61,394 nt of DNA. It comes from a virus (taxonomy: Duplodnaviria; Caudoviricetes). Of the stretch, positions 34,077 to 59,636 are shown in pieces. The notes under the pieces are model-generated. The model had not been told where the DNA came from. It did not search any database and saw nothing but the letters and a program-made list of their open reading frames with translations. The stretch spans positions 1-61,394 of the IMG/VR virus record IMGVR_UViG_3300021139_000014, one strand, 5' to 3'. Position 1 is the stretch's first letter; the number at the start of each line of letters is the position of its first letter. The translations under genes and the position numbers were made by a program.

Positions 34077-34618
34077 TAGAATCTAATACTTGATTGTGAG
34101 ATAATAGTAGCCGCTCTTGATAGGGCTGCCTGAGAAGAGAATTGGTCTCCATAACTTCCCGCATTCACTGCCGTAACCTTTTCTCTTTGTAACTGAACTA
34201 AACTATCCTTAAACACAGGGTCAGATAATCTTATAGGATTACTTGCCAAAATCTGCGCAGCATTATAAATAGCCTGATTAGTAAAACCAACCATGGTAAC
34301 CACATTAGTAGAGCTATATACCGAACCTGTAACAGGACTTGTCTTATTTAAACTCAACTGAATACTTAAGGCTAAGTCGGCAGTAAAACCTGTGATAGTA
34401 ATAGTATCAGCACCACCAATAGGGAAGTCTACATAACCTGAGGTGTTGCCGGCAGGGAAAACCAATGGCGTACCATCTACATAATAAATATATAATCTTC
34501 TCCAATTAAAACCACTTTTAGGCTCACTAGAAGCGGTATAGTTAGAAGTATCTGTAATCGTTAAGGATGTTCCATTAGCTGATTGCTGTACAGTATATGA
34601 AGCTACAAAAGTACCCAT
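34076..34618 (-). CDS. Putative virion structural protein
   Basis: First gene after the promoter at 34633-34640; Ser/Thr-rich. Confidence 0.6.
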   Translation of the reverse strand: MGTFVASYTVQQSANGTSLTITDTSNYTASSEPKSGFNWRRLYIYYVDGTPLVFPAGNTSGYVDFPIGGADTITITGFTADLALSIQLSLNKTSPVTGSVYSSTNVVTMVGFTNQAIYNAAQILASNPIRLSDPVFKDSLVQLQREKVTAVNAGSYGDQFSSQAALSRAATIISQSSIRF

Positions 34619-34621
34619 AGA

Positions 34622-34640
34622 AATATTTTACACAAATATA
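34622..34640 (-). promoter_or_regulatory. Late promoter/leader TATATTTGTGTAAAATATT
   Basis: Contains TAnnTTTG; identical 19-mer at 51085-51103. Confidence 0.7.
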
Positions 34641-34645
34641 CTAAA

Positions 34646-34976
34646 ATAATCGGTTAGGTACATATCAGGTTTTATATCCAAGGAAAAGTATTCACTGGAT
34701 TTTCAACTACTTTATTTACAACTTGTAGTATCATAGCCTTTCAATGCGCCCCATATCCTAAGGGTATATCAGTTTAATACTTAGTTTCCTTGTCGGCAGT
34801 CGTCAACCTGTAAGACGTTGCTACCACTTTTACTGATATATATGTCTCCACTTATTTAAAAGGTCGGCTATTCAGCTCCCGAAAATATAAGTGTTAAGCA
34901 CCAAAGACAGCAAACTTTCATTTAGAAGGCAGTTGTGCCTTAATAGGGAAAAACGTGTTAAAACCTAACCGATTAT
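34646..34976. ncRNA. Putative ~330-nt structured non-coding RNA of unknown class
   Basis: Perfect 14-bp terminal inverted repeat plus several internal helices; no ORF of 60 aa or more. Confidence 0.6.
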
Positions 34977-34983
34977 GGGAAAT

Positions 34984-35124
34984 AAAAAACCCACCAAATG
35001 AGAGTTGATGGGTTGATTAAAACACTTCCATTGGAAGCAGAACAATAATACTGAGACTATTGCGGGGATTATTCAACCCGATAACGTACTCTCATTACCT
35101 TATCGGATTTGCAATACAAAATTA
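34984..35124 (-). promoter_or_regulatory. Promoter plus leader with terminator/antiterminator
   Basis: TAATTTTG at 35117-35124; terminator near 34984-35014 whose loop and 5' arm are complementary to upstream leader sequence. Confidence 0.55.
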
Positions 35125-35142
35125 GTAATTATTTTTAAATTA

Positions 35143-38100
35143 TCAAAACTTGTTTTTACTTATTTTATTTTTTTTATTGTCTTCTTCTAAGGCTGTATTA
35201 ACTACTCTTTCAGCTAAATTTTGCATAGGGATGGCATATCCATTAAGCATTAACACAAACTGTAAGGTAGAAATACTTGTTTTTAAGGCTAAATAAGTAT
35301 CCTTTTCTTTATCTGGAACTTCATTAGGAGATTTAGTTAAAAGCTTACCAGCAGCTTCCATACCACCAGCAAGGTCAACTATACTAGAACTAACCTCAGA
35401 CAAGGCAGCAACATTCTGTAATAACAAATGGTCTATTTCTTTTTGAGAAGTAACCTTACTTACAGCCGCTCCTCTCTTTGTTTCTAACTTAGGAATCTTA
35501 TGATAAGTAATATTATTCATGATATTTTCAGACCAATCCATTATCTGAGCATTCTCCTTCGGAGTAAGCACCTTATCAGCCCAATTTGAATTAGCGGCAT
35601 AGTAAGCTGATGTAGCTAATCCATCTGCCATTGCTCTACCTAATGAACCATATTGGCTAAAGGCAAGCTGACCCATGTTAGCTATTAATTCTTGAGCTGC
35701 TCCTTGTTTGTCAAACTTAGACATTAATTGGTCCTTATAGTAATCAGCTGAACTGTCATCCTTACCTACTGATTTAGCAATAGCTAATTGTTGTAAATAA
35801 CTTGTTACGTTGTTTAAATATCCCATCATAGTGATACCAGCCATAATACCTAATGGCTTAGATAATTCGCTTACTGCTCCAACATCACCTTTAGCTGCTC
35901 TATCTTTAAAATCTTTCATACCTTTTATGAATGATTCATACTCTCTATTAGTATAACCTCCAACGAATCCAACAATTTTACCAATCGTACCAGAAGCTTC
36001 TATTTGTCCAAAAGGGACTGCTACAGTTCTTCTTCTTGCTCCAGTAGTAGTAGCACCTATGATTTCTTCTGTTTCTTGGTCAGCAATTGAACCAGCATCA
36101 TTTAATGCTTTCTTAAATTTATTTCTATAAGAAGCATCGCTGATAAATTTATTACCATCGAAATTCTCTCCAGTAATTTCCTTGAATGAATCTCTAAACG
36201 TAGGCATCCAAATCATGTTATTAAAATGAGCCTCGGTAAATCCACTCAACCATTTTGCACCTTCTTGTAACCATCCATGTCCAGTAGTTACTTTACCAGT
36301 ATCAATATCAAAGTTTGCATTAATATTCTCCTTGATTCTTATTGGACTTTTTGTAAACTCTTTAACTGCATCTGATATTTTATTTCCTTTAAATACCTCA
36401 GCATAACCCTGGAATCCAGTTTTACCTCTTATAGGATATGTTACAAATCCAACAGCCGCTTCCTTGAATGCTCTAATTGGGTCAAAGAATATTTTAACAG
36501 AAGTAGCTGATAATAGCTTATCTACAAACTTCTGTCCAGCATCAGACTTAACACCTTGTAATTGAGATTTTAATCTTTCACCAAGCTCTTGTTCTGTAGC
36601 TATTAAAACATCTTTATTTTCAGGTCTTAATAGCTCTAGGTTTGTATTAATAACTTTTCTTGCCTGACTAAGCATCTTTGTTAAATGATAATCCTCAAAT
36701 GTATTCTTAGCAGCGGTATTCATTAGGTAACCAAAATCTGTCATAGGTAAATCAGACTTCATTACATCCTTTATAATACGTTCTTTACCAAATGGACTAG
36801 CTATTCTAAGAGGAGTCTTACCAACCTCAGATGCTGCTGTTGGAATTACCTTGTCCTTATAATACATTCTAGGCATATAAAAAGGAACCTTCTCAAGACT
36901 CTTACCTCTCAAGCTATTAGCATACTCTTGTTTATCTGTTACATTATTTTCAAATAAATTTGTAACAGCATCTAATGCAGCTCTTTGTTCTTTGGTTAAA
37001 TATTTATCTCCTCCGTTTATAAAATCGTTATACACATCCTCTAAGTCAACCATTCCATCAGCACCTTTTGGTATTGATTCGTAAGCATCTTTCATTCTTG
37101 TTTCAGTATCCTTATATCCTAATAATTTCTTAAAGTTAGATACCTTATCTGGGATGCTTCTTGTTTTATCTTTATTATTTAATTTCAAGCCAAACTCATC
37201 TACAGTACCTACATCTTTAATGTTCTTATATCTCTCATCAAACTTTTTAGAATACTCTTGAAGATAATGTACAATCATACCCATTTTATGGGAGTCCTGG
37301 TTCTCTATTTTGTTTGCCTTGAATATATCAGCAACTGCCTTACCAAAATCCTTTGAATCTTTTGTGTAATCAGCAAGACCTTTATTGAAAGGAGATATAA
37401 GTTTTAACCAAAAATCATTACCTAATTTATTTGCTTTTATTCCTAACTTACTAGCCCAATATGTAATGTCTGTTTTAGCTAATTTTTTAGCTGCTGCAGA
37501 TACTGTAGTTTCTTTTAAACCACTTAATTCATCAGCTATACCAGTTGAGTTTTTAGCCTCAAGAGATGTAACAACATCATGAAATTTAGCGACATCTATA
37601 TAGCCATCATTAGCAACCCCCATAGCCTCATTTAATACATATAAATCTTCTATTGATAAAGATTTTAAATCCTCATCTGATAAACTATTTATTTGGTCAA
37701 TAAGTTCTTTTTGCTCTGGCGTTACTTCGTAATCTGGTTCTATCTTGTTGCCTCTTATATCATTGATGAAATCATCTTTTATCTTAGATATTTGGTCCTT
37801 ATATTTTTCTTCAAACTTAGATTGCTCAAAAGCAACACTACTTGCTATGTCATCATATTCCTCTTGAGTTATATCCTCATTTTCTAATAGCTGATTAAGT
37901 CTTCTTTTAAGCTTGTTTGTATCACCTATTATTTTTACATAATCCTCTATTGTTTCAACCTTGTTATTATGTATGTCATTTAATAAATCTAATGCTTGTT
38001 CTGATGTTTTTACATTATCAAAAACCTTATCCTCTTTTGATTCAGCTTTTATTCTTTCAATGTCAGCAGACATTTCAACCATTAATCTAGGATTAGGAAC

Positions 38101-49762: not shown

Positions 49763-50392
49763 TTAGCTTTCAACGCCATCTGAAACATGGTCTTGTTTAA
49801 TATTTTTACGAGCCATAATTCTTTGTGTAACTATATCAAACACCATACCTATTGCATCAGGAGGCACATTAATAGGAGCACTTAAATTATTAGTTACATG
49901 TGTAGCCATTCTCACACTAACCTTTGTACCTGCAGGCAATAATGATTTAACCCACATATATAATGTAGAACCTTCAATCCAATAATAAGCTGCCTTAGGA
50001 AGATGCGGCATGTCTCTAAAGTAATCTATTTCATTTCCTGAAACATAAAGAACTGGTCTGCTTTGACCTTTAAGTCCTGTAAAGAATACAGAATTAACCC
50101 CACTACTATTAGGAAGCCCTAATGGAGGGTGAGGAATAGAAGTATAATAGTATCCTGTATCAGCATCTCTTGTAAAAGATGTTATTTTAAAGGTAGTTAA
50201 ATAACCATCAGGAACAGATAAAATTCCTTCAACAGCATAAGCATCATTAGCCTGTTTAGTGGCAACCTGTGCTACTGCATCATTAATATGTAATAATAAT
50301 TCATTATCCGTTAATACTGCTGCATCATCTGGATAATCATTATAGTATTGACGCCTAATCCTGTCAATCATTTGTTGAGTAGTAACAATCAT
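49763..50392 (-). CDS. Tail ring/adaptor protein
   Basis: Position and size; YYWIEGSTLY. Confidence 0.6.
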   Translation of the reverse strand: MIVTTQQMIDRIRRQYYNDYPDDAAVLTDNELLLHINDAVAQVATKQANDAYAVEGILSVPDGYLTTFKITSFTRDADTGYYYTSIPHPPLGLPNSSGVNSVFFTGLKGQSRPVLYVSGNEIDYFRDMPHLPKAAYYWIEGSTLYMWVKSLLPAGTKVSVRMATHVTNNLSAPINVPPDAIGMVFDIVTQRIMARKNIKQDHVSDGVES

Positions 50393-51081
50393 TATTCTCC
50401 AGTATTAATAACTCCTTGCCCAAATTGAGTTAGAGTTGGTTCTTTAAATGAAACTCCAATTATTTTAGCTGCTCTTGCAACAATTTCATCAATATCATTA
50501 TTGTACCATAATGGGTCAACACTTCCTGTTGAATTATATACAGGTCTACCATTACCATCTGTTGTGTAATTCCAAACAACATCTGTAGGTACAGTTAAAT
50601 ATTTTAAGGTAATATTTGTTAAGGTATTTGGATATATTCTCCAGTTTGTATTTTGTTCTACAAAGAACGCATTTGCCTCATTAATTGGGTCAATAGAATC
50701 CTGAATACGCTCAGCATATCTATTTTCTTCAAGTCTATATATTCTATAAATATTATCGGTATACATACCAATAAGCTTATTAAAACCTGTTGGTTTTGTT
50801 CCTAATAAAGTTCCAGATGTCAATGTAAGGCCAGAACCAATAGTCAACACAGCTGATTGTTCAAATGGCATTAATCTAGAAACCACATTATCTGTCATAG
50901 ATAAACCTACTCTTGGAACAGGTCTTCCATACTGATATTGTTCTACACGACCAACTAAAAAATCATAATAATTTCTTTGAGCCGTATTAAAAGCGTATTG
51001 AAAATCTGCAGGGCTTAAACTTCCTAGCTGATTCTTTCTAACAATAAATCTAAGTATGGAATATACTTGGTCGACAGTCAT
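50392..51081 (-). CDS. Head-tail ring/adaptor protein
   Basis: VYSILRFIVRKNQLGSLSPADF..AQ; YLTVPTDVVWNY. Confidence 0.7.
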   Translation of the reverse strand: MTVDQVYSILRFIVRKNQLGSLSPADFQYAFNTAQRNYYDFLVGRVEQYQYGRPVPRVGLSMTDNVVSRLMPFEQSAVLTIGSGLTLTSGTLLGTKPTGFNKLIGMYTDNIYRIYRLEENRYAERIQDSIDPINEANAFFVEQNTNWRIYPNTLTNITLKYLTVPTDVVWNYTTDGNGRPVYNSTGSVDPLWYNNDIDEIVARAAKIIGVSFKEPTLTQFGQGVINTGE

Positions 51082-51084
51082 CGG

Positions 51085-51103
51085 AATATTTTACACAAAT
51101 ATA
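51085..51103 (-). promoter_or_regulatory. Late promoter/leader TATATTTGTGTAAAATATT
   Basis: Identical to 34622-34640. Confidence 0.7.
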
Positions 51104-51105
51104 AC

Positions 51106-51135
51106 AAAAAAGCCCCACAATAGAAATTGTAGGGC
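51106..51135 (-). terminator. Rho-independent terminator
   Basis: GCCCTACAAT-TTCT-ATTGTGGGGC followed by T6. Confidence 0.85.
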
Positions 51136-51165
51136 GTTACATCTAAAACTAAATCAACATGAGAA

Positions 51166-52077: not shown

Positions 52078-52159
52078 AGTTTATTTTTTTACAAATTTAG
52101 GTAATAATACTACCTAAACAATAAAAATGCCAAACTTTTTTTAAACTATAATATCCCTT

Positions 52160-52390
52160 TTATGTCACAATTTTTTAAATATTTGTGCATTTTATGACAC
52201 ATTATGCAAGTTTTGTTACTTTTTTATATAAATATGTAACAAGTTGAATGATATTTAATTCATTATAACTCAATTTGTCTTTTATGAATGATAAGTCATA
52301 CAAAAATATCCCTAACTATATTACAATATTTGATAAAATTAACCCTAACTATGTTACAAGTTGCATGAAAATTCAGAAAAATTCATGCAG
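52160..52390. repeat. Array of short, distinct imperfect palindromes and a 17-bp direct repeat
   Basis: Inverted repeats at 52166/52183, 52186/52204, 52213/52236, 52247/52260, 52283/52296, 52362/52382; direct repeat at 52310 and 52343. Confidence 0.6.
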
Positions 52391-52399
52391 ATTATACAC

Positions 52400-52427
52400 A
52401 AAAAAAGCCCCCCATTTCTGGAGGGCT
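52400..52427 (-). terminator. Rho-independent terminator of the capsid gene
   Basis: AGCCCTCCA-GAAA-TGGGGGGCT followed by a T run. Confidence 0.85.
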
Positions 52428-52447
52428 CTATATTCAATCAGCTAAGA

Positions 52448-59547: not shown

Positions 59548-59636
59548 GTCTTTGTGTTTGCACCGATTATTAGAATCGAACTAATGCCTTTGGTTTTGGA
59601 GACCAATATTCTACCCCTAAACTAAATCGGATATGT

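Follow-up and report, generated by a model that had tools for sequence, protein, structure and literature searches.

The window analysed here is the whole 61,394-nt stretch of the viral record IMGVR_UViG_3300021139_000014 (Duplodnaviria; Caudoviricetes), a 61-kb record that is about 52% complete, has about 35% G+C and includes genes for a portal, a large terminase, a primase/helicase and a tail-fibre protein of 1503 aa. Our subject is a non-coding element in the 524-nt gap at 34619-35142, which is flanked by two minus-strand genes: a 1263-aa gene with no family match and a 180-aa gene that is the first of the tail-fibre cluster. Read in the direction of these genes, the gap holds a short 5' module and then the element itself, which we call the B domain (coordinates of all features are in the table). 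Comparison with related contigs supports a previously undescribed family of large phage RNAs with predicted pseudoknots, to which B belongs and which always stands behind a small, terminator-ended putative RNA switch. The first-pass annotation had described the gap as free of open reading frames (ORFs), and this was borne out: no ORF of at least 30 aa lies in 34619-35142, and there are 8-15 stops per frame in all six frames. Because every frame contains more than one kind of stop codon, reassigning any single stop codon opens none of them, and we rejected a recoded ORF. Both ORFs bordering the gap are complete and the element is intergenic.

The first-pass annotation had also listed a set of internal pairings, and we found every one of them in the sequence: CAAGGAAAAGTATT (34679-34692) with AATACTTAGTTTCCTTG (34776-34792), TATATCAGT (34765-34773) with ACTGATATA (34832-34840), CAGGTT (34666-34671) with the loop AACCTG (34805-34810), CACTTAT/ATAAGTG around a GCT-ATTC-AGC hairpin, and an AAGGCA-GTTG-TGCCTT hairpin. 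The perfect 14-bp inverted repeat that was said to close the element (34646-34659/34963-34976) is present as well; however, it is specific to a lineage and not a feature of the family, and the same holds for the boundaries drawn from it. Of 200 Markov shuffles of the window, 19.5% contain one or more perfect 14-bp inverted repeats whose arms are separated by 20-400 nt (mean 0.30). The whole element folds with z-scores of –3.97 (plus strand) and –3.13 (minus strand) relative to shuffles, and these scores are due to the 14-bp arms and are lost when the arms are removed. Pairings from this sequence alone are weak evidence, and their significance comes only through covariation among homologues.

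By blastn and nhmmer, with a scan for the family's most conserved block that added L068 and L067, we found ten homologues of B in viral contigs (L048, L068, L034, L022, L030, L067, L061, L045, L024 and L025), with profile E-values of 1e-52 to 1e-92. When the window element was the blastn query, L048 matched at 80% over 317 nt, L034 and L022 at 76% and L030 at 75%, and there were partial matches of 67-79% to L061, L024, L045 and L025. Outside these contigs, a blastn search of 34600-35160 with settings for distant matches gave no match among 50,697 phage records, and a scan of species-representative bacterial and archaeal genomes did not turn up the family's most conserved 21-nt block. The B family appears to be confined to phages of freshwater metagenomes. 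We found no description of such an element in the full-text literature, which does not take in the supplementary files where candidate RNA motif lists are usually placed and so is no proof of absence.

To the homologues we fitted a curated structure of 11 helices and 68 pairs, which was scored on two alignments, A4 (8 sequences) and A5 (10 sequences). RNAalifold on the 8 sequences gave 50 pairs, 27 of them with compensatory double changes, and a covariation term of –11.3 kcal/mol. In A4, 96.1% of cells are paired as compared to 81.7 ± 1.1% in shuffles, and double changes are found in 33 of the 68 pairs as compared to 19.1 ± 2.4; neither value was reached in any of 500 shuffles. When the pairing partner was slid by 1-3 columns, only 35-46% of A4 cells were paired and no more than 6 pairs had double changes. 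A5 gave the same picture (91.6% paired against 78.2%, double changes in 37/68 pairs) despite visible one-column misalignments in helices Hd and Ha and in the pseudoknot PK, and over both alignments the slid controls had at most 11 double-change pairs. The compensatory changes that mark a conserved structured RNA are thus present beyond the controls; folding energy, another mark, is better than shuffled only when the 14-bp arms are included.

Table. Features of the locus. Positions are those of the window unless a contig is named; minus-strand features are read from the higher to the lower position.
Feature	Position	Strand	Details
Promoter-like motif of the 5' module	35117..35147	-	TTTG 35147-35144, 19 nt, then TAATTTTG 35124-35117
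5' module, ~130 nt	34984..35116	-	H1 35106-35078; terminator stem 35012-34990; U6 34989-34984; nhmmer profile hit 35115-34984, E 3e-20
Complementary variable segments	35096-35088; 35005-34997	-	AAUGAGAGU (H1 loop); ACUCUCAUU (terminator loop); covariation
B domain, proposed structured RNA (main finding)	34646..34983	-	family-profile envelope 34980-34651; homologues, profile hit, covariation
5' arm of 14-bp closing stem	34963..34976	-	holds AUCGG core; overlaps Ha (UAGG 34967-34964)
Ha 3' strand and hairpin Hb	34926..34947	-	CCUA 34947-34944; AAGGCA 34941-34936 / UGCCUU 34931-34926
Conserved single-stranded junction AAUGAAAGUUU	34912..34922	-	in all 10 aligned sequences; L061 group offset by one column
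Long-range helix Hc	34736..34908	-	34908-34898 with 34747-34736; encloses Hd, He, Hf, Hg, Hh, Hi
Hd; hairpin He; Hf	34893-34887/34855-34849; 34881-34865; 34840-34833/34772-34765	-	inside Hc
Hg; Hh; Hi	34826-34821/34799-34794; 34817-34814/34804-34801; 34764-34750	-	inside Hc
Hairpin Hj	34706..34729	-	ACUAC 34729-34725 / GUAGU 34710-34706; double changes in 4/5 pairs
Helix Hk	34679..34792	-	CAAGGAAA 34792-34785 with UUUCCUUG 34686-34679; crosses Hc and Hf, hence pseudoknot
Pseudoknot PK	34666..34810	-	Hh loop CAGGUU 34810-34805 with 3' tail AACCUG 34671-34666; crosses Hc and Hf
3' arm of 14-bp closing stem	34646..34659	-	6 nt upstream of next gene's -7 box; not conserved in B family
Second promoter-like box, short leader, start codon	34618..34640	-	TATATTTG 34640-34633; ATG 34618-34616 of 180-aa gene; conserved in relatives
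Type A, ~290 nt	L004 2688-2978; also L005, L006, L007, L013, L015, L016, L018, L019, L053, L060, L065		same slot

Set against this structure, the pairings first noticed in the single sequence fall into place as family helices. The longest corresponds to Hk (CAAGGAAA/TTTCCTTG), which is 100% paired and backed by covariation (one G-C to C-G double change); the second corresponds to Hf (TATATCAG/CTGATATA), with double changes in 6/8 pairs. The loop pairing is the pseudoknot PK, for which we found four compensated versions (CAGGUU/AACCUG, CGGGUU/AACCCG, CUGGUU/AACCAG and AAUGGU/ACCAUU) and double changes in 3/6 pairs. Hd, the helix around the GCT-ATTC-AGC hairpin, is supported by homologues, and the last hairpin is Hb (AAGGCA/TGCCTT), where all six pairs have double changes. 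Among the remaining helices, A4 has double changes in 7/11 pairs of Hc, 2/4 of Hh and 1/3 of Hi, one U-A to C-G double change in Ha, and one-sided G·U changes only in Hg. In Hb, Hf, Hc and Hj most positions differ between lineages and pairing is retained.

The unpaired parts of B are conserved in a different way. Two junctions, AAUGAAAGUUU and UAAAAGUGGUAGCAA, are invariant, and no pairing partner for AAUGAAAGUUU was found in the aligned family. A conserved peptide starting at the AUG in this junction (start AUGAAAGUU; 34900-34920, minus strand) was rejected: the frames run for 8-26 codons and only Met-Lys-Val is common to them. Of the 10 aligned B sequences, 9 have the AUCGG core of the 5' arm unchanged, the exception being L067. 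The closing stem itself is complete in the window (14/14) and partial in L034 (10/11) and L030 (8/11); in L048 the closure uses another 3' partner (CCCCUAUCGG with CCGAU(AU)AGGGG), and no closing stem of this type is present in the L061 group or L067. A conformational switch through ATATCAG (34662-34668), which the first-pass annotation had also proposed, did not hold up as a family feature: the sequence is there, but outside the window it survives only in L048 and L068, the window's closest relatives. Taken together, the alignments show a pseudoknotted family of 11 predicted helices, two of them crossing, with invariant junctions that remain unpaired in the model, and its pairing appears to have been selected at the RNA level on the strand of the genes.

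The strand had been left uncertain, with the promoter and leader favouring minus and some G-U pairs favouring plus. Read on the minus strand, the paired columns contain 45 G·U cells and 3 A·C cells (8 sequences), or 65 and 4 (10 sequences). Because G·U cells far outnumber A·C cells, the RNA is placed on the window's minus strand, which is the gene strand. This settles the earlier uncertainty for the minus strand, and we consider it almost certain that a structured RNA is encoded there. The element is also constrained in sequence. Sequencing runs X6 and X12 each contain a single strain, which departs from the window at 29/571 and 26/517 positions of the 180-aa gene (about 5%); in the element it differs at only 2/387 and 1/366 positions, which makes the element about ten times more conserved than the adjacent coding DNA.

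Two other accounts, an RNA on the plus strand or chance pairings in a non-functional spacer, are very hard to reconcile with these counts. Folding is slightly better on the plus strand (z –3.97 versus –3.13), and one mismatch in the L034 closing stem would be G·U there; however, the 45 (or 65) G·U cells would turn into A·C mismatches, and neither a promoter nor a terminator was found on that strand. Chance pairing would fit the z-scores of the interior of the element, which are not significant, but it fits neither the compensatory changes in 33-37 of 68 pairs nor the tenfold conservation relative to neighbouring coding DNA. We regard this pair of accounts as highly improbable. Several observations do weigh against a conserved folded RNA on the minus strand. 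Without the 14-bp arms, the interior has z = –1.12 (plus) and –0.53 (minus), no better than shuffles; the first-pass annotation had named such a result as one that would count against its reading, and here covariation overrides it. No more than about 5-6 lineages stand behind the ten sequences, which also served to derive the structure, and the shuffle control overstates significance for related sequences; here the weight falls on the slid controls and the G·U asymmetry. Hd is paired in only 71% (A4) and 50% (A5) of cells, a low score that, judging from the sequences, would reflect one-column alignment shifts. Finally, of the 24 sequencing runs in which the stretch occurs, none is recorded as RNA.

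The first-pass annotation had proposed a novel large structured phage non-coding RNA (ncRNA) with pseudoknots and had suggested Rfam and homologue searches as checks, and both came out in favour of it. We take Rfam 15 to include models for the group I intron, RNase P, transfer-messenger RNA (tmRNA), 6S, ROOL, GOLLD and HEARO. At gathering thresholds, Rfam 15 found only tRNA-Trp in the whole window. No family could be counted as a match to the element even at E ≤ 10: in sensitive mode on 34400-35400 there were three hits (E 0.36-8.2), each 25-46 bits below its gathering score, of which only the one at E 8.2 overlaps B and the other two lie on the 5' module or terminator. Rfam searches of the relatives L007 and L006 found nothing, and a search for tmRNA with ARAGORN found none. 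We rejected a group I intron because the element is intergenic, its flanking ORFs are complete, relatives that lack the island keep an intact gene and there is no Rfam hit. The crossing of both Hc and Hf by Hk also gives a strand order different from that of the group I core.

Mobile DNA was considered as well. A miniature inverted-repeat transposable element (MITE) or other mobile cassette, with the 14-bp repeats as transposase sites and no RNA function, would explain why homology to close relatives stops within about 5 nt of both arms and why the element is near-identical in strains whose flanking gene differs by 5%. At 331 bp, non-coding and with perfect 14-bp terminal inverted repeats, this one copy resembles viral MITEs and falls within the size and repeat limits (50-800 bp, terminal inverted repeats of at least 10-15 bp) given in PMC11602168. 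It is, however, a single copy in the record. The repeat-pair pattern has 0 matches in viral contigs and 0 in genome contigs, an internal 25-mer has 0 matches in viral contigs, and further occurrences of the 14-mer in the window do not exceed chance. There is no target-site duplication of 2-10 bp, since the flanks ..ACTAAA and GGGAAA.. share none and TA is conceivable only inside the repeat. Homologous copies exist without terminal repeats, the promoter-side arm is homologous to sequence in relatives that have no island, and internal covariation with 45:3 G·U to A·C is a signature of RNA. The MITE account is largely refuted by copy number, target duplication, unconserved termini and RNA-type covariation, and we give it next to no credence.

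No resolvase, integrase, reverse transcriptase (RVT_1) or HNH match is found in the record, which is about 52% complete, and this speaks against a MITE and led us to reject a retron, a diversity-generating retroelement and a homing element. An invertible DNA switch was rejected too, because there is no resolvase or integrase match and the contigs from 4 runs contain no joint at which the strand changes, although contigs can miss rare forms.

The slot that B occupies is allelic. The 180-aa protein is encoded in four viral contigs at 86-96% identity, and the DNA of these relatives matches the window up to 34646 (34640 for L007) and resumes at about 34980 in L006 and L007. Between the break points, the relatives carry a different sequence of about 290 nt, type A. 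In the freshwater run X4, we found both a contig identical to the window and a contig that joins 34640 to 34980 around other sequence, which means that both cassette types coexist in one population. Three further relatives (L010, L011 and L012) have neither module nor element and keep the same intact downstream gene and its TA..TTTG box; a metagenome scan with the 180-aa protein added only such island-free relatives. L010 and L011 keep 15/20 bases of the window's promoter-side repeat arm, so that this arm is old promoter-upstream sequence and not the end of a foreign insert.

We found no homology between A and B by blastn, tblastx or nhmmer. A shared CTTTTAAAT(G/A)A(A/G)TGG (13/15) was rejected as homology because it lies on opposite arms of different hairpins, and we treat it as chance or as a recombination junction. 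RNAalifold gives type A 46 pairs, 6 of them with double changes. Type A and its module are much more strongly conserved than the surrounding genes: between L004 and L019, type A is 91% identical and the module 93%, and the downstream gene is 59% identical. Type A contains a hairpin with a GGGGGAGGGGG loop and two direct repeats (GGTGGTAAG or TTGGTTAG), both matching a CTTACC, and it is a mosaic of sub-modules (1a/1b/1c, 2a/2b). In L007 (2626-2964), and at the same position in L015, the A domain and the next promoter are separated by a 112-aa ORF that shows a Cys-x2-Cys..His-His..Cys-x2-Cys-His pattern; Pfam gave no hit on the L007 ORF that supports the likeness to HNH seen by eye.

Both A and B come directly after the 5' module. 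A pattern scan for the module terminator gave 54 stretches, and a module profile then found the module in 20 distinct contigs; four weak profile matches (L036, L047, L052 and L064; E 7e-5 to 6e-4, terminator part only) are left out of all counts. With L068 and the window added, all 22 modules are followed directly by A (12) or B (10), and in L067 a divergent module, which still keeps the complementary segments GUAGAGA/UCUCUAC, is followed by B. The first conserved bases of B begin 5-15 nt past the U-tract of the module, and between the two there is no TTTG..TAnnTTTG motif. This arrangement, which probably corresponds to the Bacteroidota –33/–7 consensus, is found upstream of the module in 10 listed loci.

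Across the family the module measures about 100-135 nt, and an intrinsic terminator is present in 22/22 modules; in the window it is a hairpin at 35014-34988 with 10 pairs, 4 of them G-C, and a T-run. The loops of H1 and of the terminator carry two segments that are complementary to each other and change quickly. All seven pairs between the segments have double changes and 100% of cells are Watson-Crick, which 0/500 shuffles reach; we read eight versions in the first ten loci, and L024, L060, L068 and L067 carry further ones. Between modules that are at least 85% identical, the 14 segment columns differ at 36% (44/122) as compared to 6.6% (60/914) elsewhere, so that the segments evolve at about 5.5 times the rate of the remaining module. 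Within the window, the variable segment has no targets beyond the two known sites.

When we folded modules without the 3' arm of the terminator, an alternative structure was preferred in 18/19. In it, the segments form an ordinary helix and a GGG(U/C).. located 3' of H1 captures the ..CCC of the terminator 5' arm by pairing; on the alignment, this fold is 99.1% paired, with double changes in 8/12 pairs. These predicted folds give the module the look of a terminator/antiterminator switch. Bases at the very start of the downstream domain can in turn pair with the 5' arm of H1 (A types, L006, L053, L024/25 and L048/68) at –8 to –12 kcal/mol, which at most 4% of shuffles reach, and this pairing is strong in four of the nine B loci tested and weak in the window (–6.3 kcal/mol, reached by 15% of shuffles). 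It may explain the conservation of AUCGG, and it points to refolding of the long transcript as a single unit. We think it very likely that the B domain and the 5' module make up one functional unit.

The reading that we prefer, with moderate confidence, is a bipartite phage ncRNA on the minus strand in which a terminator/antiterminator switch gates a large structured RNA. Transcription would start at the module promoter and would either end at the terminator, giving a short RNA, or read through into B. The choice would depend on the alternative module fold, with the variable-segment helix and the GGG(U/C).. pairing on the ..CCC arm of the terminator together acting as an antiterminator. B would then act as a folded RNA itself, by binding protein, by catalysis or by self-assembly; the unrelated genes that follow B in different phages lead us to prefer this over a leader tuned to a single gene. 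That B is made by conditional read-through we hold at about evens, and we are similarly divided on whether it acts in trans rather than as a cis leader.

On the side of the switch, too, there are contrary points. The terminator looks strong (a stem of 8-10 bp and U6), and little read-through might occur. The antiterminator helix GGGY/RCCC is 97.8% paired and has one covarying pair only, and the segments fit a kissing loop in the terminated fold, or pairing between molecules, equally well. Type A of L004, like the interior of B, folds no better than shuffles (z –0.77). No promoter was recognised between the terminator and B, yet a phage-specific promoter could be missed there.

Such a promoter would make B a separate transcription unit, served for example by a phage-modified polymerase and merely linked to the module. 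The strong terminator that divides the module from B would fit this, as would the exchange of A and B as cassettes with break points at 34640 and 34980. The lack of a TTTG..TAnnTTTG motif ahead of B speaks against it, as does the fixed short distance at which A or B follows 22/22 modules, and the start of the downstream domain is complementary to the H1 5' arm, though weakly so in the window. On balance we consider a separate unit improbable.

A cis-acting leader, in which B would be a long 5' untranslated region on read-through transcripts and would control translation, stability or termination of the next gene, is the strongest of the competing accounts and still an unlikely one. Most B members have no terminator of their own and an ORF starts 20-60 nt after B, and in the window the closing stem and the UUUUAG behind it look like a terminator placed directly ahead of the next promoter. 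The genes that follow, however, are unrelated: the tail-cluster 180-aa gene in the window, L034 and L030; a gp6-like head-tail connector in L061 (PF05135 at 44 bits), to which the proteins after B in L045, L024 and L025 are clearly homologous; and small ORFs elsewhere. These last, in L048 (11218-), L068 (822-) and L067 (4505-), encode 39-40 aa about 20 nt past B, with a hydrophobic core in two of them. No promoter motif was seen between B and the ~40-aa ORF in these three contigs, as a leader would predict, but the window, L034, L030 and the L061 group have their own promoter-like TAT(A/T)TTTG after B. L010, L011 and L012 keep the gene and the promoter-like motif without any island, and eleven helices with two pseudoknots go far beyond what such leaders are known to require.

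Large RNAs that fold in a complex, conserved way are rare, and those with known functions are mostly ribozymes or the cores of RNA-protein machines. The closest parallels to B are ROOL and GOLLD, large 'ornate' RNAs of phages and prophages, which are likewise phage-encoded, several hundred nucleotides long and rich in covarying helices and pseudoknots, with no known protein partner or function. B differs from them in having no Rfam 15 match at E ≤ 10 (their models are assumed to be in the library), in being shorter (some 330 nt, and about 470 if the module is counted), in not lying beside tRNA genes, in standing behind a terminator-ended module and in having a non-homologous alternative 3' domain. 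The sole tRNA of the record, tRNA-Trp (CCA) at 59560-59631 on the minus strand, is 24.6 kb from the element. According to bioRxiv 10.1101/2024.12.08.627333, covarying loop-loop pairings of ROOL and GOLLD that were first read as tertiary join molecules into cages, and a covarying 'tertiary' kissing loop of ROOL proved to be intermolecular. By analogy, intermolecular pairing of the module's complementary segments is a live possibility.

The module resembles attenuators and riboswitch platforms in having an intrinsic terminator whose 5' arm can pair with an upstream GGG.., and it differs from them in matching no known aptamer and in being followed by a large structured RNA instead of a coding gene. 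A hypervariable segment pair such as the one in the module's alternative fold is not known from ligand-sensing platforms. Specificity through kissing loops or antisense RNA is familiar from ColE1 RNA I/RNA II, pT181 countertranscript attenuation, and the P4 CI and P1/P7 c4 immunity RNAs. The module shares with these systems short complementary loop segments beside a terminator that change fast and stay complementary, a 'private' RNA-RNA code; unlike them, both partners are predicted to lie on the same strand of one transcript of about 130 nt, and no antisense promoter was seen. In phage lambda, PR'-6S RNA-tR' gives a short terminated RNA near the late structural genes unless it is overridden by protein Q, which loads at the promoter. 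Here, too, a promoter beside structural genes would give a short terminated RNA unless the terminator is overridden, but the override appears to be built of RNA and a 330-nt structured domain follows instead of late mRNA.

More speculatively, and in our view rather improbably, the locus could be a private-code device, in which a strain-specific terminator/antiterminator switch gates a double-pseudoknotted RNA (a ribozyme or a ROOL/GOLLD-like RNA-only assembly) and the hypervariable segments give the abundant short RNA a means of acting in trans on transcripts still being made. Such a device could sense copy number or timing, or exclude co-infecting relatives, and its gated RNA would exist in two non-homologous versions, A or B. 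Independently of that, the family would add to the unexplained ROOL and GOLLD a compact case of about 330 nt with 11 proposed helices, two pseudoknots and invariant junctions, in an unusual setting, with a short 5' switch whose recognition code evolves fast and two 3' domains that can replace each other. Together with the sequences, the structure model and its covarying positions suffice to design probing, termination and cryo-EM work and a covariance model for wider searches.

Two repeats elsewhere in the window were observed alongside the element. The 17-mer TATATTTGTGTAAAATA of the second promoter-like box occurs again, identical, at 51103-51087; this copy (within 51087-51140, minus strand) directly follows a terminator hairpin and T-run and precedes the gene at 50392..51081, and the TATATTTGTGTAAAATA sites are probably the phage's recurrent terminator-promoter junction. 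A 32-nt inverted repeat with 91% complementarity (26506-26537/52210-52241) has its arms 25.7 kb apart, and one of them lies inside a 370-nt non-coding gap (52078-52447), alongside a terminator and AT-rich promoter-like sequence.

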